Positions 1 through 44,252 of a stretch of DNA of 48,352 nucleotides are shown here, in pieces. Below the pieces are notes generated by a model that did no database searches, had not been told where the DNA came from, and saw only the letters and a list, made by a program, of their open reading frames with translations. The stretch is from IMG/VR virus record IMGVR_UViG_3300024243_000002. One strand, 5' to 3'. The translations under genes and the position numbers were made by a program. Numbering within the stretch: the first letter of the stretch is position 1; every line of letters begins with the position of its first letter. This stretch comes from a virus.

Positions 1-127
1 ATAAGACAGAAATTGAGGCAAAAGCAGAATGCCTTGAACATCTGAAAAGAATGTACTCTGGATTTTCTGTTTTAATAGATAAAATTTTAGGAGGACGGGA
101 TGAGTAACAAACATTGTTATTACATAC
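1..127. repeat. Direct terminal repeat, copy 1 (identical to 48226..48352)
   Basis: Compared base by base: the first 127 nt equal the last 127 nt. nt 1..107 duplicate the 3' end (including the TAA stop at 105..107) of the CDS at 48036..48332. This implies a circular or terminally redundant 48,225-bp unit. Confidence 0.9.
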
Positions 128-1752: not shown

Positions 1753-1757
1753 CGAAT

Positions 1758-1789
1758 AAGGGGAGACTATTAATCTCCCCTTATTTTTA
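1758..1789. terminator. Bidirectional intrinsic terminator between the convergent arms
   Basis: Perfect 9-bp stem AAGGGGAGA (1758..1766) / TCTCCCCTT (1774..1782) with a 7-nt loop. ATTTTT follows on the plus strand and an A-run precedes it (a T-run on the minus strand). It sits between the plus-strand stop at 1752 and the minus-strand stop at 1787. Confidence 0.75.
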
Positions 1790-4700
1790 ATCTAAATTAT
1801 ATCTTGGTTGTTTTTTAATAGGTAAATATCTATAAGGCCCTGGCCTCCATAAGTTATTTTGCACAGTCTTCAAGAATTCCATTTGAGCATCTGGTTGTCC
1901 AGGATTATCCTGCATTCTTTTAAATGCAGTTGCTGTACCTGTTATTTTATTATAAATACGAGGAGCGCCTGGTGCTGTTTGATACAAGAGTAAATTAATT
2001 ATATTCGTAGTGGCATCTGTGCCATATTTATACTCCATTGAAGATCGATTTACATTAATTCCCGTTGTTGCACGAACCAGCTCAGACATGTCCTCTCCAA
2101 GAGTGCCGTCATCAAGTCCGGCTTTGACCAATGCAAATCCAATAGCCTGTGGTAATTCTTTTCCGGTTGGTCCCATAAAGTATTGAGGCAACCCGCTCCC
2201 CCAGCCAATTCGATTACGATAATTTATAACATCTTGCTCGTCGAGATAGCCAGAATTGACTAAGCCGTTCAACTTATTGCCATGAGTGCCTGCATATCGA
2301 ACAAGATCCCTTGTCATATCAATTGCTGGTATGCCTATAGGGTTGACACGCTCTGCAAATTGAAGAGGAACAGGAGCATCGTCATCACCACCGAGTGCTT
2401 GCAATAGAATGCCAAGTCCAAAGATTGTACTAAATGCAGTATCTGGGTTAAATTTATACTCTTGCTGTGATTGCCACGTGGTGGGCGACCAGGCATTTGA
2501 TATTTGTTTATTAGGACTCAATCCCATATGATCGCCAGCCTGTATCTCTGCAAACTTATCATGAACCATATACTGGCCAATGGCCTGAATATTTCTGGTA
2601 TAGTGTACCAATTTAGTTAAGAAAGCAGTAGCGGTATTGAGATCCAAATCAGATCTATTTAATTTATCATACAAGAATTGAGTTTCTACAATTAATTTAT
2701 GACCAGCAGCAGAAGATGCTCTTTCGCGGTATCTCCTAAATGCAATATCAATACTTTTTTCAGTAGCCTTTTTACCAACTACACTTTCAGGATCTATTCC
2801 AAATCTTCGATAAGTATCTACTGATAGATTTGTAAATTCTTGCTTCTGAGAAGAGATTTGATCCCATACTCTAGCAGCTCCTGCTCTCCAGGCTTTTTGC
2901 CTTAATGGAGTTTCTACTTTACCCATTAAATATAAAAGCTTATTAGCGGTAAAGCCGACAACCTTTTCTGCTGTTTCAAGTCTGTCTTTTGCAGCAAGTC
3001 CTAATTGTTCTCTTACTTTTGGCTGTAAGTATTGAGCCCATTCGTTCCAGTCAGATGAATATGGATCGTATTGATCCCTGTTTTCAAAGTCGACAAACTC
3101 TTTACCTGCTACGGCATTGAATTCATCTGGCGACCAGCGAGCTTCTCTTGGCGTTCTCGCGTCTCTTACTCCGGTTTTTGCCGCCAGCATTGTATGGCCA
3201 CCAACATGGTTAACTATTGAAGTAATAGGAGAAAATACAGACAGAACACTAGCTGTTATGCCTGCCAATACCATTCTTCCAAGTCTGGAAATAGAGCTTT
3301 GATGAGGAGACGCTTGCATTTTGCTTGCATGTTGTTCAAGCATTAATCTTACCGAATTTGCATACTCGATATTTTTTAATCGATCTTCTTTAGATCCAGA
3401 AAGAATAATCAATTTTTCTAATCCGTTATTAACGTCGAGCATTGCATTCCACATCTTTTGTGTTTGCAAGAAATCAATGCCCTCTGCAGCGTGTCCAGCC
3501 ATTACGCCCACCATATTGAAATCTTTAAGTCTGACACTATGCTTTGCTTTATCTTTTAGTTTTGCTTCAAGATTTGACATAAACCTATCTGTATTAAAGG
3601 AGGCTTGGCCGGCAGGATCTATATCAAAGAAGTTCATGTTCGTGCCAATTTGTTCTCCCTGTTCAGCTATTGCTGTTGAGAGAGCAAACTGAAGGCCTAT
3701 CCTGTTTGCTGGGAAGTAAATGTTACCAGATTGGATTTCATCAATCATATCATCTATTCTCTTAAACAGTTTTGTTTTTTCTGCAACATCTTTAATTCCA
3801 GATTGCTTTTCTGCCAGCCTACGAATTACCTGCCTTGCTTCCTGCAAACCTTCTGCCGTAATCTCTGCCTGGTAATCAAAATAATCAATCATATTATTCG
3901 CTATAGCTCTTTCAGCAGTACCCTTTCCGGTAGCCAGGTCGCGAGACTGCAACATGCCAATAATCTTATCAACAGTTTTTGTTCTATCAACAAGCCTTTG
4001 GCCGTTTTTCCCGCGCTTCGGTATAGTTATTTCTCTGCCATTTCTATCAGCACCGATTTCGATCTGATAAATTGGAGAGAACCCAGCCCCTCCATCTGTT
4101 TGCCCATATCTTGCTACGCCATCAAACATATCAGCCATGGCCATTAATGTAGCCCCGGTTTGCCCGGCAATAGGATCTGAGCCTTCTCTTAATGAAGCGT
4201 ACAGCCTTTCTATTGAAGTAAGGTCTTCAGTAGATGCTCCGGCGTGCTTGGCAAGAGACAGTCTGTTTTGGATTTCAGATATGCGAGACATAATAGATTT
4301 TAAATCATTATGCCCAGCAGGGAAATTATCTTTTATCGATTTTTCTAAATTAACAAGAAGTGAAAGTGATTGACTTCTATGCCGCTTCATTTGACTACGA
4401 ACTATATTTGAAGTTTCAAATAGATGTTCAAAGTGTGGACTATTTTCAGCCTTTTGTCGAGGAAGAGCATTGCTGTATAGCCAGGCTGCTGCTTTATCAA
4501 CAACTCCCGTTGTCTCGCCTCCGGCAGCAAGAATAGTTTTATTATAATGCTTCTCCCCATACTTCATGTGTTCAAGATGTTTAAGAATCTGGAAAACATC
4601 CTGCTCTTTTAATGGTTCTCGATTTATATTTATATTATACTGCTGCTGCACCCATCCCCTAAAGGCAACTTCAGGTTTAGATCCACCTTGAGACATACTT

Positions 4701-7700
4701 AATATGCTCTGAATCCATGGATCATACCGTACTATATTATCAATTTTAGCTAAACCTTTATTTATATGTATTGTTTCTTTGGGGTCCGCATCTTCTCCGG
4801 TACTTACTCGAATTTGATCACGCAGCTGTTCCTGCTGCTTAGTCAGGCTTCCATAGGAGGCCTTCCTGCCTTCGCTGTAGCCAAAGCCGGCACCAAGGGC
4901 GCTTGGGTTGTCCCCAGCACGTAAATGTCTCAGCATACGCCTTGTGTGAGCTACCGTGGCCCTGTCTGCCGCAGTTGCCATATCTTCTGAAAGCGGACGC
5001 ATATCATCAAATTCTCTTTCAAATTTCTCCCTAAGACTGCTTTTCTTTTCAGCAACAAGAGCTTCCCATGATTTATTATTAAACCTACCCTGCATCTTGC
5101 TTCTTAAAGAAGCCTGAACTTGCGGCTTGCCTATTTCGTTATTAACAGACTTAGTTACTTTCTCATTAAATATATCTTCTTTTGCTCTACGAGCTTTTTT
5201 CATTTCAGAATAATACACTTCGGACGTATACGGAGAGCGATCTAATCCCTGGGAGTCCAGCCTTGTGCTCGTCTCTTTGAATAAAGAATTATCTGCTCCA
5301 CCGAGAGCATCGCCAATTGTTTGCTTAAATTCAGCAGTTCTTAACCCGTTTATTCTTTGGGTAAAGTCTTGTGGATTCATTACAAGAGCATTGCGAGAAT
5401 ACATTCTGAGTATTCCAGTTGCAGCGCCAACCCACTTAGGGATTCGTCCGCCCACAGTAATTCCATCTATTTCACTATTAATTGATTCACCTTCGACCAG
5501 AGAACCTTTACCTTTAAATCTGTCTATGTCCTTACCGGCTATCGGTAAATTATAAGTAGCAGTAAATTCGCCGGTACTGCTTGCGCCAAGGTAATGACTT
5601 GACGCACCGTCTGAAATAATCTGCTCAAGAGCAGAGAGTGCAGCGCCATCGCCTTTGGAATAAGCGCTATTCAATAGCTCATAAGTAAGTATCGCGTCCT
5701 GATGATTCTTGGCGAGATAGCCCATTACAGATCTCAGTAATTGATTTTGCATATTTCTATGTATCGGAAGAGCCTTGCCGCCTACTGCAATTGTTCCCCT
5801 ATCTTTGCCGAGAGGACCAGTTGACAGTAGCGCATATGTAGCATGATAAATACCGTCACCGTCTTTATCCCACTTTTCATAGAATGTCCTGACAGCTTCA
5901 TCGGAAGCCTTCTGCACTGCGTCCCATGTCCACTTATCTTTTGCGTTACCAGTTATAGCCTTTTTAGCAAAGCCTTCAATGGTATCAATAATCTTCCTGG
6001 CATGTTGCGCTCTCGCTTTTCCAGTAAATGTATAGGAATGAGGATCGGCAAACAGCCTTGCTGCAGTTCCAATTGAAGCCTGGGCCACAGCAGTAGATCT
6101 CATCTGTACTATTTGATCAGGCATTAGTACATGCTTACGCTGTTCTCCATTAAATATTGCCTGTACTTTTTCATAAGGAGACTTCGTTGGACTATTATCA
6201 AATACGCCATTTGCGTCTGGTTTATTAAACTCAGCATGAGTAAGTATCCGCATAGCCATTTTCTCAAAATTAGTACTCATCCGTGTTTGGTTTTTGCCTG
6301 GATATGAATTGGCGAAATCAATAGTAGGATCTATTAATCTCAGCGCATCCGATGTAAGCTCTGATTCAAAAGTAGCATTCTCATTTGTGTACTTTTCATA
6401 TACTTTTTTATTTAATTTATTAATACGCCGCAATGACGCAAAGGTCATATTCTCAGAGTTCTCAGGAGTAAGCAATCTAAGCTCTCTTCCCTTGGGAATC
6501 TTAACTCCATTATTTCGCAGCATCACCCCGAAGAGAGTATTGAGATTGTTGCTTGCATTTGGACTATCCACCAAAGCAGCAAGAAGAAGATTGTCAGTAA
6601 TAGTTTTTCGTTGTTGCCTGGAGGTGTATCCATTTACATCGCCAACTTTCTCTGCGAAGTCAAGCATTGTCTCAAGAATTTTCTTTTCTTGACCTCTGAT
6701 CAAATTAGTAAGTTCAGCATCTCCGGTAATGCTATTCAGCCATCCATTAGGATCATGCATGATTACTTCTTTAACAAACAAGTCGCGCATTTCCTTGTAT
6801 GTCATATTGGTGCCTTTAGAGGCGGCATCAATAACAGCCTGAACATTATTGTCTTGCATTTGCAGGAAATCAATATCCGCAGTTAACCTTGAGTGAGTAC
6901 TTCTCTTTGGCCCAACAACAACAGACTTTCCGCCCTGAGTTAAGTTTACTCCAAATCCGTCAGCCAGAAACGCCAGTGCATTGCTCAACTTCTGCGTAGT
7001 GCCTTTTGCTTTCTCAAGAACAACGGCGTTTTCTGCAAGCTTCCTTGAGCTTTTCCCGCTAAACCATTGATCAGACTCCATCGCTGGAGGACCTATCTTA
7101 CGTCTTTGCTCATAAACGCTAAGCTTTGTATCTGCGGGCTGCTTGGCATTGCCATACGCCCAGCCATCAGCGATAGAATTCATGCCTATAGGATTATGTG
7201 CCATCGTTTGATCGCCATCAAAGTCCCTATCCATAAGAGCAGCTTTTTCTCTCCCCATGAAAGCATCGCTTTTCTTAGAGTCATACCCCAATACGTAGTC
7301 CAATTTACTTGCAGCGAAATCTTTAGATGGATAAGTTTTAGCACCAGCAACCATGCCAACCGAAACTGTTGCGAGTCCTTTATTGCTTGAGAAGTTTGGT
7401 CCGTCAAATTGATCTCTTCCCAAATGAGGCCTTGCTTCATGGTCGTATTTTCCAAGGAAAAAATCAAGCGCATTTCTGACTGCGCCATTAGTAATTTTCC
7501 TGGACGCAAGCTCGGCTCTTAAGGCCTCTCTTCCAGAGAGCCTTCCGATACCTTGCCCGGCATATATTCCATTCTCTCCAGACATAATATCATTTTCTAT
7601 TTCCCAAGAATCAGGAAGCCCGCTGGTGTCGCCGCTCTCTATTGCCTTTTTCCCAAGTGCTATTATGTATTTATTAAGCTCTGCCAGCGCTTTCTCTTCT

Positions 7701-10700
7701 GCTGGGACAAATCTTTTATGTGGAGTTTTCGATGCTACTTCTGCTTTTCCACCAGACAGTCCAGCCTGCATGTAGTTATACATCAGCGCAGCCAGCCTGC
7801 GCTCAGCCGTAACTTTGGCGCTTCCTGAAAGGCCTGCAGCCTCAAGAAACTTTGCAGCATGAGCAGTTGCTTCACTCTGGGCTCTGCCTAACGAATTTTT
7901 TAATGAACTCCTAATCGAATCAAGAAGTAAGTTCTCTCCGGTCTTTGGTAATTCATTTAAATCTAATTGTTTCCCAATATCAAATTCACCAAATCTATAA
8001 GAGTCATTTTTAAAGCCGGCAACCTCTGATTTGCTTAACTTAATTCCCTTGCTGCCAAAGAATTTAATATTATGATCGATAGCATTATTTGCCGACCCCT
8101 CTTTGTCTGCAGAATAATCCTTGAAAGCGAGAACAAAACTAGAAGCATTATCAATAACTGTTGAGCCGTATTCAATACCCCTATATGCCTCGTTGCCATC
8201 AAGAACACCCGACACGACCAAGTGACTAGCTCTCGCAGCTTTTTCTGCCCTGGATACGCCCATTCCATTTGCCCAATTAGTGATAGCATTAATACCCATG
8301 CCTGGCGACCACTCTAATGTACCGCCAGATGATACCCACTCATAAAGTCCAGATTCCTGCGCAATGCCAGGATCAATTCCAAGACTTCTTTCAAAGAAAT
8401 TTGACAACTCCTCGGCTGTAGCAGCTCCACTTAAAATATTAATATGTTTATCAAGCGCCGCATTAAATACTCTATCTAAAAAAGCATTCGCTTCTGCCTT
8501 TGAGTCTGGCCCCCTGTACATATACTCTGTAAACTTTTGAGAAGTTCTATTGTTTTCAACGCTGGAAATATTATGAAATTCAAAACTAGATAATGGAACA
8601 TCTATAATACCATTGTTAGTATTAACCTTAACCTCATTCCATCTTCCATTCTGTAGCGCCAGCCCAGCCTCTGCGTAATCTATAGAGGTTCCCTTGTGAG
8701 AAAACTCTACTGCAGGTATGTTTTTAGGCATCTTTCCTGTTGATGAAGTGGTCAAGAACTGAACGCCTAGCTCCTTACGTAACGCCGTAAGCTTTGGACT
8801 GTCAACTATCAGACCTTTATATAGTCGCTCTACGCCGTCAGGCCCGCTCATAATAACAGAAAACTTGCCGGTTGATGCATCGCCCTGTACTCCGTGAAGA
8901 GTGTGTAGCAGGTCAATTTCGGCTCTTGAGGCAATGATAGCGCCATCGTCTAATTCTGTTATGCCTAATTCTTTCGCCCTATCCTCTGGTAGCAACTTCA
9001 GAATATCAATAGATTCAACATGTGCAACTTTAACTTTACCATTTTTTGCGAACTCTGCTCTGTTTACATTCTCTGAATTTGTATGCAATACTTCTGCGAT
9101 TAGATCAGTAGGAATAAATCTACTATCGGCAAGCACCCTTGATACATGCTCGCTGCTTGTTGTGCGAGAGCTTGGATTGTTGGTTTTCGTTGCATATTTA
9201 TTTGCCAGACTTTGCCATCCAGCGCTATCGTTAACTTCTGCTAAAGATTCAAGCCCAAAAGTATGAACATTGGATAACCTTGTAAGGCCTTCTGAGATTA
9301 TAAGCTTTTCGCCTATTGAAAATGCGCCGCCATCTGAATTTTCTATAACATTAGCAGCATCTATAATATCACTAACGAATCCCTTCAATACAAAAGCTTC
9401 CGGCCTGTTTTTTGTAAACTTATCTATTTTGCTAGCCATCGATAGCAAGTATTTATCGGTTCCATTTTCCTTAAAGTCCCTGCTCCCAACCATCGCTGGC
9501 TCATTAATTCCCTCAGTCCGGAAAGTAATAAAATCATCTCTTTGTTCGCCGTCAATAGTATATGATGTATTCATTAATTTTTTATTATATCTAGGATTGG
9601 TAGCCCCTTCTTTTGTTAACGGAGACTCACCCTCAATCGTAGCGCCAGTCGGCATTATAATTGTAGTCTCATTGTGTTCACTGCCAAGAGCATCTGCCAT
9701 TCTTGTGATAGCTGTTCTTTCGGATCTAACCATGTTGCCAACTACACCAGAAACTTTTGTGTTCCCGTCTATCATTGCGCTCGGAGATATGACATATACA
9801 TTTCTTGTAGATGTTGCTTCTCTTATTAAGTTTATCTTTGCCAATTCAGCATTGTTTTTAGTTTTACTATTATGCTTAACATTACGCAAGTTGCGTATTC
9901 GCTCTATAACAACATTAATCATTTTTCTATCTTGTCTTGTGCTCTCATCATATAGTAATTCTTTGCGAGCTTCACTTTCGGAAAATACTTTTTCATTAAT
10001 CCATCTACTCAGTTGCGCATCTCCAATTAAAGCAAGCTTGCTTGTTAATCTAGGAGATAATCCAGGATCTATTATAGACAATGAGTTGCTCATTAAAATA
10101 GTATCTAATTTATTGTGAAGTTCTGATTGTGTATACTTTCCCTCTTCGACAAGATTCCTAACTTCCGTCAGAACATTTTCTTTTCCATGAGAGGATAGTC
10201 CATAAACATCAAACAGATCTTTTGTGGATTCAATTTCGAGATTGCGCGAGCTTCTGGCATCGACTGCTGCCTCGAAGTCACCAAGGCCCATAAGAACTTT
10301 ATCTTCTGCAAAGCCAGCTTCTCCACGCTTAACATTTAGCTGCCTCAGAATTTCCCCAACATCACGCCTGGCCTTGCCAAGATTGGCACTCGGTGAGATT
10401 TTAATCTTAACCTTGCCATGTTTACCATTAATAAAAGTTAAGCCATTTCTTTCAAGAGCCTTTTTCGCTTTATCAAATGCGAAATAGTCCTCCCTTCCTT
10501 TTCCAAGAGAATACATCATAGATCTTAACGTGTGCTGTATTTGACCTATCTCGGTCCTTGTCCTGGTACTGGTTTTAATATTTCCAAGAGCTTCCTGTAT
10601 GGCCTCAACATCGCCCCTCTCGTAAGCGTCCACCATTCGGACATATCCCATGGCGGCTTCTTCAAGGTTTCTGTCGTGGCCAACTATATTAGTAATCTCA

Positions 10701-13700
10701 GCAGACGCATCTGCTTCAGTAGTTTTTACAACTCCATCAATAGCGCCGATCCGTTTAAACTTACCAAGCATTCCTTGTTCCGTAAGAGCGTATCTATCTG
10801 GAAGGCCTTCGTCATATAACAAATTATTTATATATTCTATATATGTAGTTTCTTTCTCGGACCCAGTAAACATAGTTGGGTCCTTCATAACAATGCCGTC
10901 TTTTGTCAGCTGAATTATTCCTTGATTTTGAAAATGATTATTAAACGCCGATACCCTGTCCGGAATTCTACCAAACGGCAACTGCTCTTCGCGGATTTGA
11001 TTTGCAACAGTACTTGAATAGCCCGGTACATTTAAATGAACGCCCAAAGTATTAACTAAAAGATCTCGCATAGTTTTCTTTTGAGTCTTTAATCCAGAAT
11101 CAAGTTCTATTGCGAATTTATTACTCCACCATTTAACTAATTGAGAAGCATCGCCTTCTTTGTATTTACTCTTTGCTCCGCCAGGCATAAACCTAACATC
11201 GTTCCTTCTAGACATTATTTCCCAGAAGCCCCTCATCTCTGCAACCATAGAATCAATATCACCAGACAACGCATTTGGATATTGTTTTTTAAACGCCCTT
11301 TTCATTCCAGCGCCACTTGGCAAGGCAACCATTTTCCAGATCTGTCTTCCGCCAGCATCCTTTCCTCTTATAATTGGAGACTCATGAAGTGAGGACGAGC
11401 CGCTATTGGCTTTTCCAATAATCTTATCCATGGTGACCGAAACTGTTTTATGTCCGCTCTCGCCAAGATCATGATTGTACGTAAATATATCAGTCATAAA
11501 CTTACGAGCGCTTCCTATTGCAGACTGCTCATAAATAAGACTATGTATAGACGAGTATCCGCTTTCTGTATCCATATCATGAATATAATCTTTATGATTT
11601 TTACCTATATGCTCTTTAGCTAACGATTGAACCGCATCCACATTATTCATTAAAATTTCATACGCAGCAGCGCCTTCTTTTGTTGCAATATCAACAGTCT
11701 TCGCATCTGCTATAGAGCCTTCTATGCGAACTGATTTAGATAGAGTATCGACATGCAGAAGACCCATATTAGCACGATAAGATTCCTTGGCAAGCCTGCT
11801 TACGTCTTCCGGCCTGTCGTTTTTAGAATCAATAAACTTCACATAGTTATATTTATCTGTCTGAATTACATCATCGGAATTTCTGGCTCCGTACACCTCC
11901 CGCCCATCATCAAGAGCCTGCGGTACACTGCTGTCAATTGAATCGGCAAGCTCTAATACTGCCTGCCTGTACGACCTCCTGAAGACATTATGCCTTACAT
12001 CTTTAAATATAAACGAATCGCCTGGAGCAATTAATCTTTGAGCAGAAAGCTCTTTCTTTAATCTTTGAACCATAGAAAACTTGGCAGCATCGGATAGCTC
12101 TCCAAGAGTGGTCGCGTCCGTGTCAAGCGTTATGCTGTCCTTGCTGAGAAGAAGACCGCTAACTTCGTCTTCTCTGAATTTGGCAGTTCGCAATAGCCGA
12201 ACCCAATCAGTAAACCCGTTGACCTCTTCTTTGTGCAAGTCACCTTTGGGGCCAGACGGATCATACGCCTCACCACCCATCTCTTTTATCATTACATTAT
12301 TAACTTCATCTAATAATTTAGGATTCTCAATTGCCATCTCAATAAGTTCTTCGGTAGTTTTGCCATCAACCTTTACAGTTTTCTCAATAGCTCTTTTGAA
12401 AATATCACCAACAGCTTTATTGGTAGCGTCAACTGCGGCTGGCACAGAATCATTGTTTATATATTCTGCAGGAGTTAGTTTCTCATGTTGAGTTGGGTCA
12501 TACGCAAGCTCCTTGTCGTACACTCCCCATAATCTAGCAACATCTCTGGCTTCATTTATTCCCTGTAATCTTAATGCAAAGTTTTGGCTTTCAACTCCAA
12601 ACCCAGCGCCATAATGAGAAGCATCCAACATGGAGAAATAAGGTTCTTTTGTCGCAGAGTATGCAAGCCCGTAATGAACCATAACATCCGCTACTGATCT
12701 CATTGATGGATCGTTTACCATTCTTCCCAAAGTAGACATTTGACCAGCAGATTCTAATCCTCTTTCTATGTCCGGCTTAAAGAGTGATGAGCCATCGCTG
12801 TAGTTCATCCCCTCTGTAGCGCCATAAAGGAAATGTTGCTGAGTGTCGGTTACTAATCCAGTCCAAAGCCCAAGCATACCACGCCTGCCAAGATCGCTAA
12901 AATAAACCTTACGCATCTCGGCCATCTTCTCGGCCACAGGTATAAAGTTTGCGGCGTGTTTTTTAGCTATCTCTGCAGCAATCTTTACTTTTTCGGCACC
13001 AGTTGCTCTGTCAATTGCATTCGCCCAAACACCCAGCTGTAGCCCCGATGTTCCCTGTAGCAGCTTGCTGGCAGATTGCCTTGTGCCTGAGCCCATGCTT
13101 GCAGACATGAATCTAAGCAGCTCTGATAATGCAGCTGGATCTTCCTTTGCCATCTTGTCAAAATCTATGCCGCCATGTTGTTTTAACGCAGCACCGAATC
13201 GCCTAGTTCTTCGAGGTCCGCCCTCAGCACCCTTGCTAAACAACGCCTTCATTGCTTTTCCGAAAGCACCAGACTTGCCAAACAATCTTGAGTTCGCGCT
13301 ATCCATTCCATAAAACAACTTATCGGCTATCTTTTCACCGGCAAGAATTCGTTCCGTGCCTGTAGCATTTGTCTTGCTAATGCCAGCCAAGATAGAGTGA
13401 AGTGTATCCGTGCCCATTACATTTTTTCTGGCAAACCCAGGCTGAACCCTAAGCTTTTTAAATATCTCAAGCCTTGATAATGGCAATGCTCCACCAAGCA
13501 GCCCAAAACCAGCACCGATAGTTGCGTCATTAAGAATACCATGGAAGTATGCTCGTCTCAGCCATCCTTCTCCCTCTTCCTTGTGGAAGCCGTGTCCGAG
13601 GAACATGTTCTCAGTTGCATTCAGCAAGTTCTTCACTGTGCCGCTGGCTGAAGACCATTCCTCTTCTTCATACCCATAGTCACCTGGATGAGTAATCGCT

Positions 13701-15301
13701 CCAGTTAGCCTATGCGTAGCTGCCATAGAGACAAGTCCGGCAGCATGATTTGCTGCTCTTTGAGTCATATGGGCTACATTTGAACCAAATCTGCCAGTAA
13801 ACTTATCACTCCATCTTGTAATAAGCTTTGAAACATCAGCTCCGTCTTTGCTAAATGCTTTAATCCAATCATCGCCTGCAATTGAAACCATTCTGCGTAT
13901 TTCTTTTGGACCCAGCTCTGGATGAGCCTTCATCAATTGCTTGGCTAAATCTGTTCTGAAAATATTACTCATACTGGCAGTTAACTCTTTTTTAAGATTC
14001 TTAACTGTACCCCATGCACCGGCCTGCGCCTTTGAGCCAGTCGCTATGGTGGCCTCTACCGCCTTGTCAGAGGACTTCTTTATCATCTTACCCACTACAT
14101 CGTCTGTGACGCCAAAGATCTTTGACAGCTCACTAGAGACACCTTTAGCGGCTTCCTTTGAGCCAGCCTTGCCAAGTACTCCTAATTCTGTACCAGAAAG
14201 GCCTCTGCCTGTACTGCCGATTACCCTTTTGATGCCAGTGCCACTTGCAGCCTTCGCATTAATAGATAACTTGCCGAACCTTTGCCCAAGTGAATGTAGT
14301 GATAGGTTTTTGTTTACCCATTCAAGAGTTTTAATTCCAACTTCAGGTGCCGCATTAACTGTTTTCGTAATCTTGGTATCTTTTTGAGCAAGTTTAATTG
14401 CGTCCATCATGCCAGGAAACCTATTAATCTCTTTAGCTACATCATCGCCGCCAGCTGCCAGCAAACGAGTTGCTTCTTTGGCTATGGCTTTAGTGCCGCC
14501 TTTAGATGCAGTTTTTTCTGCCGATCGTAGAATGCCAGAAATAAGCTTAGATTCACCTTTTGCTTTGTCAATAGACTGAAGAACCTTTAAAGTCTTTGTC
14601 GCCTTTATTCCTTTGCCAGAAATCTGCAGCGCCTTCAGCCCGGCGATAGCCCCCGAGCTTATAAACGTACCTGCAACCAGTCCCGCAACTTGGCCACCAT
14701 ACGCAGCAGCTCTACCGGCATCTGATCTTGGATCGCGCATCGCGTCAACCATATTCTCTCTAAACCAAGCGTCTCCACCAAGAGCCTCAATGCCTTTATC
14801 GACACCAGAGGCAACCCCCTGTGCGAGCAATGTTGTTAAGCCGGCAGTAAACGAATCAAACGTATGATAAACCAATGCGGCAGTAGCGTCACGCGCCGCC
14901 TCAATTGGAGTAACATCTTCGTCTGTTACATTAACGCCGCCGACCCAACCGCTCAATAGAGTCTCGTCCATTGTGCCGCCAGCCTCATTCCATGCAGGCA
15001 ATCCAGCTGGACGCTGTGGCTGCTGCAGATCTCCACTACTTAACGCAGTTCCCTGCTGTCCCTGCTGCTCGCTAGCGCCAGCAGCAGACAGAACCTGCCG
15101 TAACTCATAGTTTGTTATTGAATCTCTATCGGCAGTAGATAGCTGCTCCTCAAGGCCGACCATTTTTTGATCGATCATTTTCTGGAGATCATTATCGTTC
15201 TGTCTAAAGTATTCACCGTTGGGACCACTCAGCAATTTCTGCTTAATGTCATCCCTCGCGCTCTTGCTTTGGAGCCCGGTCAAAACTAATTTGCCTTGCA
15301 T
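1787..15301 (-). CDS. Giant virion-associated protein (4,504 aa) with a beta-prime-like DFDGDQ catalytic motif; putative ejected two-barrel virion RNA polymerase fused to internal-core/ejection modules
   Basis: Uninterrupted ORF. Its ATG lies 3 nt after the stop of the upstream gene (TAAAACATG), with GAAGGA upstream. DRDFDGDQTMAHNP at aa 2691-2704 (nt 7190..7231, frame checked). Hydrophobic segments at aa 197-225, 4010-4041 and 4289-4305. It is the last gene of the structural operon. Confidence 0.8.
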   Translation of the reverse strand: MQGKLVLTGLQSKSARDDIKQKLLSGPNGEYFRQNDNDLQKMIDQKMVGLEEQLSTADRDSITNYELRQVLSAAGASEQQGQQGTALSSGDLQQPQRPAGLPAWNEAGGTMDETLLSGWVGGVNVTDEDVTPIEAARDATAALVYHTFDSFTAGLTTLLAQGVASGVDKGIEALGGDAWFRENMVDAMRDPRSDAGRAAAYGGQVAGLVAGTFISSGAIAGLKALQISGKGIKATKTLKVLQSIDKAKGESKLISGILRSAEKTASKGGTKAIAKEATRLLAAGGDDVAKEINRFPGMMDAIKLAQKDTKITKTVNAAPEVGIKTLEWVNKNLSLHSLGQRFGKLSINAKAASGTGIKRVIGSTGRGLSGTELGVLGKAGSKEAAKGVSSELSKIFGVTDDVVGKMIKKSSDKAVEATIATGSKAQAGAWGTVKNLKKELTASMSNIFRTDLAKQLMKAHPELGPKEIRRMVSIAGDDWIKAFSKDGADVSKLITRWSDKFTGRFGSNVAHMTQRAANHAAGLVSMAATHRLTGAITHPGDYGYEEEEWSSASGTVKNLLNATENMFLGHGFHKEEGEGWLRRAYFHGILNDATIGAGFGLLGGALPLSRLEIFKKLRVQPGFARKNVMGTDTLHSILAGISKTNATGTERILAGEKIADKLFYGMDSANSRLFGKSGAFGKAMKALFSKGAEGGPRRTRRFGAALKQHGGIDFDKMAKEDPAALSELLRFMSASMGSGTRQSASKLLQGTSGLQLGVWANAIDRATGAEKVKIAAEIAKKHAANFIPVAEKMAEMRKVYFSDLGRRGMLGLWTGLVTDTQQHFLYGATEGMNYSDGSSLFKPDIERGLESAGQMSTLGRMVNDPSMRSVADVMVHYGLAYSATKEPYFSMLDASHYGAGFGVESQNFALRLQGINEARDVARLWGVYDKELAYDPTQHEKLTPAEYINNDSVPAAVDATNKAVGDIFKRAIEKTVKVDGKTTEELIEMAIENPKLLDEVNNVMIKEMGGEAYDPSGPKGDLHKEEVNGFTDWVRLLRTAKFREDEVSGLLLSKDSITLDTDATTLGELSDAAKFSMVQRLKKELSAQRLIAPGDSFIFKDVRHNVFRRSYRQAVLELADSIDSSVPQALDDGREVYGARNSDDVIQTDKYNYVKFIDSKNDRPEDVSRLAKESYRANMGLLHVDTLSKSVRIEGSIADAKTVDIATKEGAAAYEILMNNVDAVQSLAKEHIGKNHKDYIHDMDTESGYSSIHSLIYEQSAIGSARKFMTDIFTYNHDLGESGHKTVSVTMDKIIGKANSGSSSLHESPIIRGKDAGGRQIWKMVALPSGAGMKRAFKKQYPNALSGDIDSMVAEMRGFWEIMSRRNDVRFMPGGAKSKYKEGDASQLVKWWSNKFAIELDSGLKTQKKTMRDLLVNTLGVHLNVPGYSSTVANQIREEQLPFGRIPDRVSAFNNHFQNQGIIQLTKDGIVMKDPTMFTGSEKETTYIEYINNLLYDEGLPDRYALTEQGMLGKFKRIGAIDGVVKTTEADASAEITNIVGHDRNLEEAAMGYVRMVDAYERGDVEAIQEALGNIKTSTRTRTEIGQIQHTLRSMMYSLGKGREDYFAFDKAKKALERNGLTFINGKHGKVKIKISPSANLGKARRDVGEILRQLNVKRGEAGFAEDKVLMGLGDFEAAVDARSSRNLEIESTKDLFDVYGLSSHGKENVLTEVRNLVEEGKYTQSELHNKLDTILMSNSLSIIDPGLSPRLTSKLALIGDAQLSRWINEKVFSESEARKELLYDESTRQDRKMINVVIERIRNLRNVKHNSKTKNNAELAKINLIREATSTRNVYVISPSAMIDGNTKVSGVVGNMVRSERTAITRMADALGSEHNETTIIMPTGATIEGESPLTKEGATNPRYNKKLMNTSYTIDGEQRDDFITFRTEGINEPAMVGSRDFKENGTDKYLLSMASKIDKFTKNRPEAFVLKGFVSDIIDAANVIENSDGGAFSIGEKLIISEGLTRLSNVHTFGLESLAEVNDSAGWQSLANKYATKTNNPSSRTTSSEHVSRVLADSRFIPTDLIAEVLHTNSENVNRAEFAKNGKVKVAHVESIDILKLLPEDRAKELGITELDDGAIIASRAEIDLLHTLHGVQGDASTGKFSVIMSGPDGVERLYKGLIVDSPKLTALRKELGVQFLTTSSTGKMPKNIPAVEFSHKGTSIDYAEAGLALQNGRWNEVKVNTNNGIIDVPLSSFEFHNISSVENNRTSQKFTEYMYRGPDSKAEANAFLDRVFNAALDKHINILSGAATAEELSNFFERSLGIDPGIAQESGLYEWVSSGGTLEWSPGMGINAITNWANGMGVSRAEKAARASHLVVSGVLDGNEAYRGIEYGSTVIDNASSFVLAFKDYSADKEGSANNAIDHNIKFFGSKGIKLSKSEVAGFKNDSYRFGEFDIGKQLDLNELPKTGENLLLDSIRSSLKNSLGRAQSEATAHAAKFLEAAGLSGSAKVTAERRLAALMYNYMQAGLSGGKAEVASKTPHKRFVPAEEKALAELNKYIIALGKKAIESGDTSGLPDSWEIENDIMSGENGIYAGQGIGRLSGREALRAELASRKITNGAVRNALDFFLGKYDHEARPHLGRDQFDGPNFSSNKGLATVSVGMVAGAKTYPSKDFAASKLDYVLGYDSKKSDAFMGREKAALMDRDFDGDQTMAHNPIGMNSIADGWAYGNAKQPADTKLSVYEQRRKIGPPAMESDQWFSGKSSRKLAENAVVLEKAKGTTQKLSNALAFLADGFGVNLTQGGKSVVVGPKRSTHSRLTADIDFLQMQDNNVQAVIDAASKGTNMTYKEMRDLFVKEVIMHDPNGWLNSITGDAELTNLIRGQEKKILETMLDFAEKVGDVNGYTSRQQRKTITDNLLLAALVDSPNASNNLNTLFGVMLRNNGVKIPKGRELRLLTPENSENMTFASLRRINKLNKKVYEKYTNENATFESELTSDALRLIDPTIDFANSYPGKNQTRMSTNFEKMAMRILTHAEFNKPDANGVFDNSPTKSPYEKVQAIFNGEQRKHVLMPDQIVQMRSTAVAQASIGTAARLFADPHSYTFTGKARAQHARKIIDTIEGFAKKAITGNAKDKWTWDAVQKASDEAVRTFYEKWDKDGDGIYHATYALLSTGPLGKDRGTIAVGGKALPIHRNMQNQLLRSVMGYLAKNHQDAILTYELLNSAYSKGDGAALSALEQIISDGASSHYLGASSTGEFTATYNLPIAGKDIDRFKGKGSLVEGESINSEIDGITVGGRIPKWVGAATGILRMYSRNALVMNPQDFTQRINGLRTAEFKQTIGDALGGADNSLFKETSTRLDSQGLDRSPYTSEVYYSEMKKARRAKEDIFNEKVTKSVNNEIGKPQVQASLRSKMQGRFNNKSWEALVAEKKSSLREKFEREFDDMRPLSEDMATAADRATVAHTRRMLRHLRAGDNPSALGAGFGYSEGRKASYGSLTKQQEQLRDQIRVSTGEDADPKETIHINKGLAKIDNIVRYDPWIQSILSMSQGGSKPEVAFRGWVQQQYNININREPLKEQDVFQILKHLEHMKYGEKHYNKTILAAGGETTGVVDKAAAWLYSNALPRQKAENSPHFEHLFETSNIVRSQMKRHRSQSLSLLVNLEKSIKDNFPAGHNDLKSIMSRISEIQNRLSLAKHAGASTEDLTSIERLYASLREGSDPIAGQTGATLMAMADMFDGVARYGQTDGGAGFSPIYQIEIGADRNGREITIPKRGKNGQRLVDRTKTVDKIIGMLQSRDLATGKGTAERAIANNMIDYFDYQAEITAEGLQEARQVIRRLAEKQSGIKDVAEKTKLFKRIDDMIDEIQSGNIYFPANRIGLQFALSTAIAEQGEQIGTNMNFFDIDPAGQASFNTDRFMSNLEAKLKDKAKHSVRLKDFNMVGVMAGHAAEGIDFLQTQKMWNAMLDVNNGLEKLIILSGSKEDRLKNIEYANSVRLMLEQHASKMQASPHQSSISRLGRMVLAGITASVLSVFSPITSIVNHVGGHTMLAAKTGVRDARTPREARWSPDEFNAVAGKEFVDFENRDQYDPYSSDWNEWAQYLQPKVREQLGLAAKDRLETAEKVVGFTANKLLYLMGKVETPLRQKAWRAGAARVWDQISSQKQEFTNLSVDTYRRFGIDPESVVGKKATEKSIDIAFRRYRERASSAAGHKLIVETQFLYDKLNRSDLDLNTATAFLTKLVHYTRNIQAIGQYMVHDKFAEIQAGDHMGLSPNKQISNAWSPTTWQSQQEYKFNPDTAFSTIFGLGILLQALGGDDDAPVPLQFAERVNPIGIPAIDMTRDLVRYAGTHGNKLNGLVNSGYLDEQDVINYRNRIGWGSGLPQYFMGPTGKELPQAIGFALVKAGLDDGTLGEDMSELVRATTGINVNRSSMEYKYGTDATTNIINLLLYQTAPGAPRIYNKITGTATAFKRMQDNPGQPDAQMEFLKTVQNNLWRPGPYRYLPIKKQPRYNLD

Positions 15302-15304
15302 GTT

Positions 15305-17200
15305 TTAGTCCTTCTTCTTGTGTGCTGGAACTGTATCCAAATCTTTTATTGTATTCAAAAATCTCTCGTAAGATTTACCCTCATTGCCAGGTGATTTTTC
15401 CCACATAAGGTAGTCGCGGTGTTTTGTTTCGTAGGTAGTCCTGCTCTCCATGATTCCATCTTTCGCAAGTGCCGCCACCTTCGTGTTAAGTTCGTATACG
15501 TTCTCTGCCTGACTGCGGCCATGAACTATTTCGGCATTCATTAGTTGAGCCTTCTCTGCCAAGTTGCCAATACTTTTAGCAAAGCCATCGCCGATGCCGT
15601 TTACTTCTTTGAGCACTTTTCTTGAGTCTCCGGAAAAATCGCCATTGCCAAGTTTCTCAAGGTAGCTTTTGCTGGTAGAAACAAATACGGCAACGCCACC
15701 ACTGTTTTTCGCAGCTTTTTTTGCTGAATTCATGGGTCCGCGCGACCCCTCATTATTTGGAGCTGTATTTTTTATCATGATATATTCATACATGTCAGCT
15801 AATCGGGAAGCTGCGTACACGGCAAATCTAACTTGGCTATCGAGATGTTTAAATACCTGCGTGGTCAGCCCCTTAATTACCATACCACCGGTTTCGGTAG
15901 GCGTTGCCTCTACAAACATATATTTCCCTCTGTCTTTCGACAGCGCCTTGATTATAATATTTCCAGCTTCGGTATAACCAACAATATTACCCCTGGCTAC
16001 AGCATTGCGATTTAGCCCTTGAATACCAACGGCATTAACATCATCCCTATATGATGAGTTCTCGCTATTTGCGCCATTAGAAATCTCCCTAGCCAAATTA
16101 TCAATAAGCTCTTTTCTTGAACTTGAGTCATTAATCACATTTTGCAGCACTTCTTTTTTCGGGGCCATGCCGGTAAATCTCCACTCTCTTTCTCTTCCTT
16201 TATCAGTCTTGTCTCTATTTATAGGGCCATCACCTTGATCTCCATTTAACGCCTTAAATACTTTGGCAGCGTCTTTAACAAAAGTCCTGGAATCACTCCA
16301 AAGAGTATCTATTTTCTTTTCGATATACCAGTCACCCATACCCTTGATTCCCATTTCTTTCAAAGTCTTCTTATCTAGATCTTTGTCAGAAAGCCCATAT
16401 GCAGCTTTATAATTATCAACGATCGTCCGACCATTTGGGGTAAGAGCATTGTAGTCGCCAGTCAAAAGCCCATACATATCATCAGATATAATTTTACCAT
16501 CCGCAATCTGACTTACAAGAAATTCATTGAACCTTTCGGTCTTTCCCGAATCGCTTGTTTTTACGCCTTCCGTTTTATCGTCAGCGCCGGCCGTTATTGA
16601 TTTGGCCCCTACCAGCTCGGCATTCTCTTTAGCCGTTAATTCTGGTTCTACTTGCTGCCAGGCCTTAGACAAAGTTTCTACTAGGTCAGCCTCTTGCTCA
16701 TCATAGTCGGCCATAATTTTTTCGTGATCATTACTTGCATTAATAGAAGCCATTGCTATTTGAAGCAGGGCCTTTTTTTCTTGTGGTCCACCAGTTGCGC
16801 TATACGCCTCGGTGTCAGCATTGAACTCATCAACCTTTTTCTGCCTTTGTTCAACAGCCGCATTATATTTACTCAATGCATCCCTATACGCAATTTCCGC
16901 TTCATCTCTTCCCTCCACCCCTTCCATAATGTCAAGCTCCCTGCCCTTGAGGACGGCCGTCCTTTCCGCAATAGCGGCGCCAAGCTTTGCCTGAGCAGCA
17001 TCGGCTGCAGCGCTCAATGCGGCACGCATCATTTTCTCCTGGCCAGCAATCTCATTTTGTCTGGCATAATTTGCCTCTGCGAGTTTCGCCACGGCGTTGT
17101 TGTCAGCAGCAATAGCTATTTCATTCTCTTTGTGCATGCTGTCTAATGCGATGCTTATGTATTGTGCGGCAGAATCTCCGCCCCTATTTCCAACTCCCAT
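15305..17200 (-). CDS. Internal virion / ejection protein candidate (631 aa)
   Basis: Long ORF in the structural operon. The N-terminal third is Ala/Glu/Lys-rich and looks helical. No enzymatic motif recognised. The role is inferred from position only. Confidence 0.6.
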   Translation of the reverse strand: MGVGNRGGDSAAQYISIALDSMHKENEIAIAADNNAVAKLAEANYARQNEIAGQEKMMRAALSAAADAAQAKLGAAIAERTAVLKGRELDIMEGVEGRDEAEIAYRDALSKYNAAVEQRQKKVDEFNADTEAYSATGGPQEKKALLQIAMASINASNDHEKIMADYDEQEADLVETLSKAWQQVEPELTAKENAELVGAKSITAGADDKTEGVKTSDSGKTERFNEFLVSQIADGKIISDDMYGLLTGDYNALTPNGRTIVDNYKAAYGLSDKDLDKKTLKEMGIKGMGDWYIEKKIDTLWSDSRTFVKDAAKVFKALNGDQGDGPINRDKTDKGREREWRFTGMAPKKEVLQNVINDSSSRKELIDNLAREISNGANSENSSYRDDVNAVGIQGLNRNAVARGNIVGYTEAGNIIIKALSKDRGKYMFVEATPTETGGMVIKGLTTQVFKHLDSQVRFAVYAASRLADMYEYIMIKNTAPNNEGSRGPMNSAKKAAKNSGGVAVFVSTSKSYLEKLGNGDFSGDSRKVLKEVNGIGDGFAKSIGNLAEKAQLMNAEIVHGRSQAENVYELNTKVAALAKDGIMESRTTYETKHRDYLMWEKSPGNEGKSYERFLNTIKDLDTVPAHKKKD

Positions 17201-17214
17201 GATTCAACTCCCGT

Positions 17215-18162
17215 TTATTGTGATACTGTGTCTTTGGAAATCTTAGAAACCTCTTCTACGTGGCTAAGCAATTCGCCAATAACATCATTGACATCTTTAT
17301 CCCCAGAAATCTCGATCTTGCCTACGACTTCCATAATATCATTAACGCGATCTAGATATTCGGAGTTTTTTGCAAAAGTCACCATCATTGCTTCCATATT
17401 AGTTAACGAGCCGGCCTTGCTTGCCATGTTTCTTCCCAAAGCCTCTTGTGTTGTAGACTTGCCTGGGCTTGAAAAATTGCCCCTCATTACTGAAAACATA
17501 GACTGGACTTGATGAAGTAAATTACTTTGTGCTTCATCGCCACCAGACCCGTATGGCTGAAGATCTTTGTTAACTTTCAAAAATGCCTCTGCCGAATTTT
17601 TTAAAATAGTATTATTCCCAGCTTCATTAAGCAAGGCAGTGGCCTTGGCAACAATTTGCTCTGCGTTCATTCCGGTAAAGTTTTCCCCGCTAATAGTTGC
17701 TAAATTATTTCTGGCTTGACTTTGAGCGGAATCAGACATCTGCCTAGTCACTTTACCGTACCCATCAACCTCTGGAGCAAAGAACCTTTCAAATCTACCA
17801 ACAACTCTTTCGCTGAGCTGCAGCGCTGCGTAACCCTTGGCGGCTGTATCTAACGGGGAGTCCATGGCATCAAGCTCCATGTTGGTCTTAGCGAAATCAG
17901 CCTGCATGTTTCCAGCAGCGGCACGCATTTCATTGCTCGCCGTAATGCCGGAAATAGCAGATCGCGTTGTGTCGTGCTTGTCTGTGGCCACCTGCTGGTT
18001 TACTTCCCCGCTAGTCTTCAGCTTTCGCATGCTGGCCTCTAGTGACTTCTCGCCAACACCCGTAGCGTTTGCTTGTCGTTTAAAATATGCCTGGTTCTGT
18101 TGACCAGCAAGCTTCATCGCACCAACCGCCCAGGGAGTAATCTGTGATGTGGTTCTTACCAT
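17215..18162 (-). CDS. Internal virion protein candidate (315 aa)
   Basis: ORF in the structural operon between the fibre gene and the giant gene. No family recognised. Confidence 0.6.
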   Translation of the reverse strand: MVRTTSQITPWAVGAMKLAGQQNQAYFKRQANATGVGEKSLEASMRKLKTSGEVNQQVATDKHDTTRSAISGITASNEMRAAAGNMQADFAKTNMELDAMDSPLDTAAKGYAALQLSERVVGRFERFFAPEVDGYGKVTRQMSDSAQSQARNNLATISGENFTGMNAEQIVAKATALLNEAGNNTILKNSAEAFLKVNKDLQPYGSGGDEAQSNLLHQVQSMFSVMRGNFSSPGKSTTQEALGRNMASKAGSLTNMEAMMVTFAKNSEYLDRVNDIMEVVGKIEISGDKDVNDVIGELLSHVEEVSKISKDTVSQ

Positions 18163-18174
18163 GTCGATACCTTT

Positions 18175-18714
18175 CTATGTATCAGCTAACTTCTTAAGAG
18201 CGCCGGCTTGTCCAAGTGCCCCTACTCCGCTCATTGCAGAGGCTGCAAATCCGCCTACTTTTAAAGCGGCATCAAACATACTTGTTTTTTGTGACTCTAA
18301 TTGAGCCTTTTGAGTAGACGCGGTTAATTCCATTTGGTCTTGCTGTGAAAGTAATCCTTGCCATTGCTGAGACGCTTGCATCTGATCGCGGTCACTAGCC
18401 GTCTGTATTTCAGATATAGCCCCCTGCATCTTGCTTTGATTATCTGACATAGCTGCATTTATCCTACCCTGTCCTATAGAGCTAAGATCCATTGACTTTG
18501 CATCAGCTTCAGCTAACTGAGAATTTTGAGAACCAACTATACCTTGTATTCTCTGTTCAAGCATAGTATTCATTTTCTTAGCACCAAATCCAGCCTTAGC
18601 CCTCTGGCTCAACCCGCTTGCCCTTGCATTATCTATTGCTGACGTTGATACCTGAATGCTATTGATAGCTTTATCTATAGCATCATTGCCTACCAGTTTA
18701 TCAAAAACACCCAT
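18175..18714 (-). CDS. Small Gln/Ser/Ala-rich virion protein (179 aa) with a hydrophobic Gly/Ala C-terminus
   Basis: ORF with a low-complexity, coiled-coil-like Q-rich body and the C-terminal segment VGGFAASAMSGVGALGQAGAL. Its position is analogous to a small internal-core protein. Confidence 0.55.
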   Translation of the reverse strand: MGVFDKLVGNDAIDKAINSIQVSTSAIDNARASGLSQRAKAGFGAKKMNTMLEQRIQGIVGSQNSQLAEADAKSMDLSSIGQGRINAAMSDNQSKMQGAISEIQTASDRDQMQASQQWQGLLSQQDQMELTASTQKAQLESQKTSMFDAALKVGGFAASAMSGVGALGQAGALKKLADT

Positions 18715-18730
18715 CTCATTCTCCTATCCT

Positions 18731-36953: not shown

Positions 36954-37005
36954 AGCTTACCTCTTTCAATGAATACAATAATTACCATAAAGGCTTCTCC
37001 TGAAT

Positions 37006-37098
37006 AGTATAACTACTATACTATATAAACTATACTATATACTATATAAGCTATACTCTATACTATATAAGCTATACTCTATAAACTATATACTCTAC
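37006..37098. repeat. TA-rich CTATAC(T)-type repeat array with a perfect 21-bp tandem duplication (37038..37058 = 37059..37079)
   Basis: Read directly: TATACTATATAAGCTATACTC occurs twice in tandem, flanked by degenerate copies on both sides at a similar period. Confidence 0.85.
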
Positions 37099-43427: not shown

Positions 43428-44252
43428 ATGAATTTGTATAGACAAAAAGATTATTTAAGTCCTGAATTAATTCGTATTATTAATAAATATGAACCAGTAG
43501 ATCATAAGCAAGAAAAAGAATTTGTAAAAAATAAACAATATGAATTACTTGTATATCATAATTTAAGATATGCATGTAAAAGAGCGCTTGAAATGGTTGG
43601 TGGACAGCTTTGCCCTTATCCGGCAGATGTTTGTCAGCAAGCATTTATGGGCATGTGGAAAGCAACTAAAACATTTGATCCAAATAAAGAAGTTAAATTT
43701 ATTACCTGGGCTGATTTTTATATTAGAACAGAAATAACAAAATGGGTTGCATCTAATGATTGGTCCTGTACTGTTTCAATGGACACATTACAGCGAGCAA
43801 GAAAAATTAGAGTATATGCTGATAAGCATAATTGTTCTTTTGAAAAAGCAGCTAAGTTTTTAAAACAACCACCTAAAGCATTACATCTTGCAAATCTTAA
43901 TAAAAAATATTCAGATATTAGTTTACACGATGATGGTGATGGTAAAAAAGATGCATTTAGAATGGATTGGGATGATAATTTGCCTACTGATAATCAACAA
44001 GCAGAACATAATATATGGGAAGATTTATCAAGATATAAATATATACAAAAACTTTTTGAAAAGAATAATATTTCTGAAAGAAATCAATCAATTATAAGAT
44101 TACGTTTTGGAATTGATTCAGGTGAACCAATGGACTTAATTGAAGTAGGTAAAATATTTAATTTAGGCCGAGAAAGAATTCGACAAATAGTTAATGAAGC
44201 GTGTGAGAAAATTAAGTGTGGAGAACCCACACCAGAAGAACTTAAACAATAA
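43428..44252 (+). CDS. Sigma-70-family RNA polymerase sigma factor (274 aa)
   Basis: Region 2: QQAFMGMWKATKTFDPNKEVKFITWADFYIRTEITKWV (compare GL.kA.ekFDp..g.kFsTYA.wwIR.aI). Region 4: SIIRLRFGIDSGEPMDLIEVGKIFNLGRERIRQIVNEACEKIK (compare l.lRfGl....TleEiG..fgvtRERiRQIe.kAl.KL). Confidence 0.8.
   Translation: MNLYRQKDYLSPELIRIINKYEPVDHKQEKEFVKNKQYELLVYHNLRYACKRALEMVGGQLCPYPADVCQQAFMGMWKATKTFDPNKEVKFITWADFYIRTEITKWVASNDWSCTVSMDTLQRARKIRVYADKHNCSFEKAAKFLKQPPKALHLANLNKKYSDISLHDDGDGKKDAFRMDWDDNLPTDNQQAEHNIWEDLSRYKYIQKLFEKNNISERNQSIIRLRFGIDSGEPMDLIEVGKIFNLGRERIRQIVNEACEKIKCGEPTPEELKQ

Follow-up and report, generated by a model that had tools for sequence, protein, structure and literature searches.

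Two-barrel polymerases that are packaged in the virion inside very large proteins have been established in two cases, gp66 of the crAss-like Cellulophaga phage phi14:2 and gp96 of the Thermus phage P23-45. In phi14:2, the injected gp66 transcribes the early genes, and the middle and late genes are transcribed by the host enzyme. Eight residues are invariant in two-barrel polymerases, namely three Asp together with the Arg and Pro of an R-x-P element in barrel A, and one Asp and two basic residues in barrel B (Ruprich-Robert and Thuriaux, PMC2919709). The two-barrel families were described as having no significant similarity outside a short stretch surrounding the DxDxD motif (P23-45 paper).

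The viral DNA analysed here (IMG/VR record IMGVR_UViG_3300024243_000002, 48,352 nucleotides (nt), referred to as the window) was found to encode a protein of 4,504 amino acids (aa), here designated the giant protein, which carries motifs resembling the active site of these enzymes. It seems rather likely that the centre of this protein (about aa 2100-2800) is an active nucleotide polymerase of the single-chain two-barrel kind, most probably one that makes RNA on DNA (a DNA-dependent RNA polymerase). The giant protein is thus probably a new kind of virion-carried RNA polymerase, a proposal that rests on short motifs in a single sequence.

Candidate catalytic loop of barrel A

The string DFDGDQ, which the earlier note had read in frame at aa 2693-2698 (window 7208..7225), was confirmed by reverse-complement translation and occurs once. 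It forms part of a candidate Mg-binding loop (Table 1), the codons of which, on the reverse complement of 7231..7190, are GAT AGG GAC TTT GAT GGC GAT CAA ACG ATG GCA CAT AAT CCT. Ungapped comparison of the loop with residues 458-471 of E. coli beta' (NADFDGDQMAVHVP, translated from K-12) disclosed identity at eight of the 14 positions (D, F, D, G, D, Q, H and P). DFDGDQ-x3-H-x-P aligns gap-free with beta' 460-471, the His standing at +9 and the Pro at +11 from the first Asp. The match had been said to run past the acidic triad, and this holds for H-x-P, which lies in the beta' register, and not for M-A, which is one residue out of register. D2693, D2695 and D2697 provide the three Asp of the DxDxD motif of the superfamily (Rpb1 D479/D481/D483).

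The further claim that this match would be hard to obtain by chance was borne out by calculation. On the amino-acid frequencies of the giant protein itself, DFDGDQ is expected 1.2e-4 times in that protein, or 6e-8 times when H-x-P in register is included, and 2.2e-4 times in the six-frame translation of the window. BLASTP against beta' gave one local match only, which covers 23 residues around the loop.

Candidate barrel-B blocks

Matrices for two blocks of barrel B were built from gp96, gp64, YonO and E. coli beta only, and were scanned over all 4,504 residues. The two top matches (Table 1) are separated by 43 aa, follow the expected order and precede the loop by 534-577 aa. By chance, a spacing of 15-60 residues in this order arises between two top matches in 1% of cases, and in 5e-5 if both scores are to be equalled or exceeded as well. 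The statistic for the best pair had z=5.3 and was reached by 0.07% of shuffles. On leaving out each of the four sequences in turn the pair was kept (z 3.4-4.1), and the first block remained the top match in every leave-one-out matrix. The same pair statistic gave z<1 on eight control proteins, and the aa 2116/2159 pair ranks first among 312 stop-free stretches (77,710 aa) of four sequences.

The acidic pair D2118-D2119 would correspond to E813-D814 of beta and E836-D837 of Rpb2, and R2159/K2162 would correspond to K979/K987 of Rpb2 or R738/K743 of QDE-1. The arrangement R2159-x-x-K2162-G also resembles F-R-A-W-K-G of gp64. At these candidate positions, the barrel-B blocks would supply three residues out of the eight that PMC2919709 gives as invariant. 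A low-confidence AlphaFold model, too weak to count, has a strand at 2121-2124, followed by a helix at 2126-2136 and by two more strands at 2146-2152 and 2158-2165. The order of strands and helix around the corresponding residues of beta is the same as in this model.

Table 1 Features of the giant protein and of the genome that encodes it. Residue numbers refer to the giant protein and coordinates to the window.
Feature	Residues (aa)	Coordinates	Strand	Sequence and remarks
Giant open reading frame	4,504 aa	1787..15301	-	uninterrupted; last gene of the structural (late) operon; 28% of the 48,225-nt genome
Candidate Mg-binding loop	2691-2704	7190..7231	-	DRDFDGDQTMAHNP; Asp 2693, 2695, 2697; direct reading, in frame with the giant open reading frame
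Candidate barrel-B N-terminal block	2116-2127	8921..8956	-	ELDDGAIIASRA; top matrix match in the whole protein
Candidate barrel-B basic block	2159-2169	8795..8827	-	RLYKGLIVDSP; top matrix match; score 15.0, reached by 3.6% of shuffles
R-x-P near-miss 1	2652-2664	7310..7348	-	AGAKTYPSKDFAA; K2655-T-Y-P2658; Lys at -38 and Pro at -35 from Asp2693
R-x-P near-miss 2	2619-2631	7409..7447	-	YDHEARPHLGRDQ; R2624-P2625-H-L-G-R; Arg at -69 from Asp2693
Top match of the R-x-P matrix	1469-1481	10859..10897	-	GIVMKDPTMFTGS; compare VLLNRAPTLH of beta'; p=0.15
Bridge-helix-like segment	2754-2782	6956..7042	-	KLAENAVVLEKAKGTTQKLSNALAFLADG; picked by eye; a guess
Second DxDxDG string	3145-3150	5852..5869	-	DKDGDG; Tyr in place of Glu at position 12
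Hydrophobic segment 1	204-225	14627..14692	-	QVAGLVAGTFISSGAIAGLKAL; Kyte-Doolittle, 19-residue window
Hydrophobic segment 2	4011-4029	3215..3271	-	VLAGITASVLSVFSPITSI; Kyte-Doolittle, 19-residue window; strongest peak, 1.76
Sigma-70 family factor gene		43428..44252	+	Pfam Sigma70_r2 and r4 and NCBIfam TIGR02937 above cut-offs; PHROG 351 match
Start of the late operon			-	in order: small terminase, metallophosphoesterase, large terminase, portal, major head protein, several unknowns
End of the late operon			-	in order: 956-aa protein, proteins of 1,148, 179, 315 and 631 aa, then the giant gene

Gene position and organisation of the genome

The first 127 nt of the window (1-127) recur at 48226-48352, and an independent contig of the Joint Genome Institute (JGI) crosses the resulting junction, so that the window represents a closed genome of 48,225 nt. 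An identical 4,504-aa protein is encoded on the independent JGI assembly Ga0233412_10000267, which shows that the giant open reading frame is no assembly artefact. In addition, the N-terminus of the portal protein is 100% identical on an IMG/VR fragment from another sample (3300027996). The phage is thus present in JGI samples 3300023210 and 3300027996.

The genome is divided into two arms. The late genes form a single operon of tightly packed genes on the minus strand, from ~36.9 kb down to 1.79 kb, and the plus-strand arm extends from ~37.5 kb through the junction to 1.75 kb. The plus-strand arm is AT-rich, with a G+C content of 28-40% versus 42-48% in the late minus-strand arm. Its products include a DNA-repair-like protein, two exonucleases, a DnaB-type helicase, the sigma-70 family factor, DUF3850 and DUF932 proteins and RuvC. 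The best-scoring named model for the sigma factor was MzaA, the sigma factor of the anti-phage MZA system, at a score far under that model's cut-off. No gene for a DNA polymerase, a primase or a T7-type or other RNA polymerase was recognised in the complete genome, nor was a tRNA gene found in it, and replication is therefore presumably host-dependent, helicase and nucleases apart. Sigma-70-like sites were not enriched in the AT-rich arm, where 47 were found versus 59 expected.

The arms diverge from an intergenic region of 570 nt (window 36954-37520). It includes repeats at 37002-37099, where a 21-nt unit (CTATACTATATAAGCTATACT) occurs four times with overlaps, and an A/T run at ~37165-37180; the region could be an origin or a promoter array. 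At the other end, a G+C-rich hairpin (AAGGGGAGACTATTAATCTCCCCTT) followed by ATTT occupies window 1753-1786, precisely where the plus-strand arm and the giant gene converge, and is probably a bidirectional terminator.

The position of the giant gene at the end of the operon, which is read directly from the gene order, is that at which internal core proteins of the T7 gp16 type lie in T7-like gene orders. Among the other late proteins, the 956-aa product had a weak match to an internal virion protein. Not a single cysteine occurs in the 5,629 residues of the last four late genes (179, 315, 631 and 4,504 aa; window 1787-18714, minus strand), as compared with contents of 0.5-4.8% in the proteins of the plus-strand arm and ~1% in the adjoining 956- and 1,148-aa proteins. 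The lack of cysteine in this block may be a sign of proteins whose ejection leads through tail and periplasm, and the first of the two hydrophobic segments of the giant protein would be compatible with a membrane-inserting ejection protein. No internal repeats were found in the giant protein. Taken together, gene position and genome layout fit a virion-delivered enzyme that acts on the AT-rich arm.

With regard to phage relatives, the portal protein shares ~23% identity with those of Vibrio, Shewanella and Pseudomonas phages, and the head protein, in its C-terminal half, shares 33% identity with its counterpart in Microcystis phage Mel-JY34. BLASTP of the head and portal proteins against their phi14:2 counterparts found no similarity, which places this phage outside the Crassvirales. 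In Mel-JY34, the nearest cultured relative by its capsid, the late arm likewise ends in a gene for a large protein (1,894 aa, 17795-23479, minus strand), which is without DxDGD and has no similarity to the giant protein. The Mel-JY34 protein carries an HEFGH zincin-like motif and has a hydrophobic C-terminal part.

Evidence against a polymerase and alternative explanations

A number of results weigh against a polymerase in the centre of the giant protein. One of them concerns the R-x-P element. Its Arg and Pro are invariant in all members listed in PMC2919709 (Rpb1 R446/P448; QDE-1 R962/P964), and the Arg is expected about 33-45 aa before the first Asp. Each of beta', YonO, gp64, gp96 and gp66 has the element, its Arg preceding the loop by 35-43 aa. 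A regular-expression scan of the 133 aa that lead up to the loop of the giant protein found no strict R-x-P, so that this mark of the superfamily is absent. Two near-misses were seen (Table 1). The Pro of the first sits at the distance expected of the element, and the second, which resembles NRAPTLHRLG of beta' and LRSPHLFREH of YonO, was the third-best match of an R-x-P matrix and not significant. The top match of this matrix lies 1,224 aa before the loop with no acidic triad after it, and its resemblance to the element may be a matter of chance. The string KDGIVM, which overlaps this top match, also resembles the N-terminal barrel-B block of gp64. On the other side of the loop, the bridge-helix-like segment follows at ~60-75 aa, a spacing like that in gp64 and YonO, and was not supported at aa 2754-2782 by a bridge-helix matrix made from two sequences. 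As R-x-P is missing in its canonical form, the giant protein is not filed as a proven member of the superfamily. The two-barrel RNA polymerase module proposed in the earlier note is accordingly retained in part: a loop far beyond chance speaks for the module, as does a barrel-B-like pair, not listed in that note, which lies upstream of the loop as it does in single-chain two-barrel polymerases, and the R-x-P Arg is not canonical.

The flanks of the loop and the barrel-B blocks call for similar caution. Once DFDGDQ was masked, the 138 preceding and 14 following residues resembled beta' 335-475 no more than shuffled sequences did (z 0-1.3). The borders of the barrel-B blocks were picked after the sequence had been seen, which is a possible source of bias, and barrel B of gp66, which served as positive control, escaped the matrices, indicating limited sensitivity. 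For the invariant barrel-B Asp (Rpb2 D837; QDE-1 D709) the candidate is D2119, and a matrix from gp64 only aligns D2141 instead. In gapped local alignment, the barrel-B segment of gp96 preferred aa 2522-2582 (p=0.04) to aa 2116-2170. Chain alignment with cheap gaps gave z=2.4 for gp96 and was negative for gp64 and YonO, a procedure too permissive to inform.

Searches for relatives were equally unproductive. Word-indexed searches with aa 1-2099, 2300-3100 and 3401-4504 returned no homologue, and an exhaustive phmmer search with aa 2100-3299 against 1.84 billion representatives returned the self-match only. Scans of IMG/VR gave nothing, whether with protein pieces (four) or with degenerate DNA patterns (two), and neither megablast nor tblastn found anything among 50,697 phage records. 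Five matches to FDGDQxMAH turned up in a scan of metagenomes and were dismissed as chance occurrences in short or broken frames. Pfam, applied to the whole giant protein and to five fragments (E up to 10), detected no family, beta/beta' domains included; PHROGs and NCBIfam detected no family in the giant protein, the latter no beta/beta' domain either. No match to the PDB was obtained by phmmer with three fragments, nothing by hhalign against the gp96 and gp64 alignment, DFDGDQ motif included, and none by BLASTP against gp66, YonO, gp64 and gp96. Such silence of profiles and libraries is not in itself evidence against a polymerase, since two-barrel families share little beyond the DxDxD region (P23-45 paper). 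AlphaFold run without an alignment did not yield a confident fold, the predicted local distance difference test score (pLDDT) being 36 for aa 2250-3050 and 48 for aa 2090-2250. Foldseek with the better model (pLDDT 48) found no match below E=0.2, a search that is meaningless on such a model. Last, a search of the AT-rich arm for a promoter motif common to its intergenic regions found none.

These results would suit a giant protein that is purely structural or acts in ejection (as an internal core, channel or tape-like protein) and in which DFDGDQ arose by coincidence among 4,504 residues. Profiles, fold and homologues furnish no evidence for a polymerase, the flanks of the loop lose significance when the motif is masked, R-x-P does not occur in canonical form and the terminal late-arm protein of Mel-JY34 is without DxDGD. 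This explanation is nevertheless considered unlikely, as it has to accommodate both the low expectation of DFDGDQ in one protein and the far lower one with H-x-P, and it needs two independent coincidences, the other being a barrel-B-like pair in the right order, which shuffles of the whole protein reach at a frequency of 7e-4. Even when post-hoc choices are allowed for, the joint coincidence is very small. Two strings of the giant protein, D2691-R-D2693-F-D2695-G2696 and DKDGDG, the latter being the start of the first EF loop of calmodulin, also fit the calcium-binding pattern DxDxDG and might be structural metal sites of a virion protein at aa 2691 and aa 3145. At aa 2691, Gln takes position 8, where a hydrophobic residue is needed, and His takes position 12, where Glu or Asp is needed. 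Pfam finds no EF-hand family in the giant protein, and a calcium loop would leave the Phe, the Gln, the H-x-P in beta' register and the barrel-B blocks unexplained, which makes this the most improbable of the alternatives. A reading of ALMDRD as motif I of an archaeo-eukaryotic primase (AEP) was rejected by eye, with no motif II or III at a suitable distance.

A different objection grants descent from a beta/beta'-like ancestor and supposes that the module is a relic, catalytically dead, or has been put to uses other than early transcription, such as priming or DNA synthesis, RNA-templated synthesis or mere DNA binding during ejection. The loss of the R-x-P Arg could mean that the constraint on catalysis is relaxed, no DNA polymerase or primase gene was recognised in the genome, and RNA-dependent polymerases and archaeal PolD are counted among the two-barrel enzymes in the literature, PMC2919709 included. 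On the other hand, the three Asp, the Gly, the Gln, the H-x-P, the barrel-B acidic pair and the R..KG are all intact, unlike the residues of a decaying site. Many phages of this size are without a DNA polymerase of their own. The extra acidic residue of barrel B has been reported as lacking in RNA-dependent and YonO-like enzymes (PMC2919709). A low probability is therefore assigned to a relic, and to the other roles named above.

Proposed scheme of action

An active two-barrel RNA polymerase carried by the giant protein can be placed in the following scheme, in which its fold, its catalytic activity, its packaging and the genes that it transcribes are all predicted. Barrel B (aa ~2108-2175) would contribute two acidic residues (D2118/D2119) and two basic ones (R2159/K2162), and barrel A would end in the D2693-F-D2695-G-D2697-Q loop, which would hold the catalytic Mg2+. 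By analogy with N4, phi14:2 and P23-45, the giant protein would be packaged in the capsid and ejected with the DNA, and its two hydrophobic segments may help it to cross the envelope or to anchor in it. The same ejected molecule would cross the envelope and pull in or transcribe the AT-rich plus-strand arm. The sigma-70 family factor made from this arm would then direct the core enzyme of the host towards the late operon on the minus strand.

As a whole this virion-delivery scheme, built on analogy, falls somewhat short of probable and is put forward tentatively. Quite possibly, the giant protein stands for a virion-delivered single-chain two-barrel lineage without detectable sequence relationship to the crAss-like and P23-45 enzymes, which would transcribe the AT-rich early arm and then, by way of the sigma factor, hand over to the host enzyme.

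If this is true, virion-carried two-barrel polymerases would be a recurrent solution, not peculiar to crAss-like phages and one Thermus phage, and they would extend to a small phage, unrelated to the crAss-like ones, in which one protein claims 28% of the DNA. One of the eight active-site positions called invariant, the R-x-P Arg, would be broken, which would inform the minimal two-barrel active site, and the beta'-like loop would bear on whether the single-chain enzymes of phages were captured from cells or are older than cells. As no profile library, structure predictor or homology search flags the giant protein, similar enzymes may hide among the orphan giant proteins of phages, and this is a warning for annotation.

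Comparison with known systems

The enzyme of phi14:2 is one of the closest counterparts. In gp66 (2,180 aa; PDB 6VR4), a single chain provides two barrels within a very large virion protein, as is proposed here, and the gp66 gene ends the structural block, as the giant gene does. The giant protein is twice the length of gp66 in a genome of half the size. The motif of gp66 is DFDID, with Ile or Val at position 4, and R-I-P lies 39 aa upstream of it, whereas the giant protein has DFDGDQ and no R-x-P; the barrel-B matrices that match the giant protein do not match gp66. None of the marks of the crAss-like virion RNA polymerase family (gp66 homology, DFD[IV]D, a Crassvirales genome) was found for the giant protein. 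The likeness to gp66 pointed out in the earlier note thus stands by analogy only, with no similarity in sequence and with a capsid and a portal unrelated to those of phi14:2.

Bacterial RNA polymerase differs in that beta and beta' are two subunits and the giant protein is a single chain. The candidate loop is nonetheless closest to the bacterial form, as E. coli RpoC has DFDGDQ-x3-H-x-P in the same register. The candidate acidic pair of barrel B, DD in the giant protein, is likewise closest to the bacterial one, which is ED in E. coli RpoB, and the candidate basic block resembles that of RpoB in having KG followed by hydrophobic residues. The NRAPTLH of beta' is not conserved in the giant protein.

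A giant size, packaging in the capsid, ejection and transcription of early genes are described for the podoviral virion RNA polymerase of coliphage N4 (about 3,500 aa). The giant protein had no PHROG or Pfam match to this enzyme. The fold of the N4 virion RNA polymerase is T7-like and single-subunit, not two-barrel.

P23-45 provides the nearest counterpart of the candidate barrel-B blocks. Its gp96 has the two-barrel module fused into a tape-measure virion protein of 5,002 aa that must pass the tail, as the giant protein likewise would, and its motif is DFDGD, as in the giant protein. The barrel-B blocks of gp96 (GDGALGIL...GLKGTVIVDP) and gp64 (GDGIVGIF...FRAWKGVIVTHP) are the closest to DDGAIIAS...RLYKGLIVDSP of the giant protein, although hhalign and BLASTP found no significant overall similarity between gp96 or gp64 and the giant protein. 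The connector between the barrels would be ~530 aa long in the giant protein versus 180-230 aa in gp96 and gp64. P23-45 is a siphovirus with the polymerase at the N-terminus of the tape-measure protein, whereas the module of the giant protein is central and its genome has podovirus-like portal relatives. P23-45 has a second, non-virion polymerase (gp64), and the genome in the window has a sigma factor instead. By analogy, it is proposed that the giant protein works like the virion polymerases of phi14:2 and P23-45, yet its sequence, its variant of the motif and the lineage of its phage set it apart from both families.

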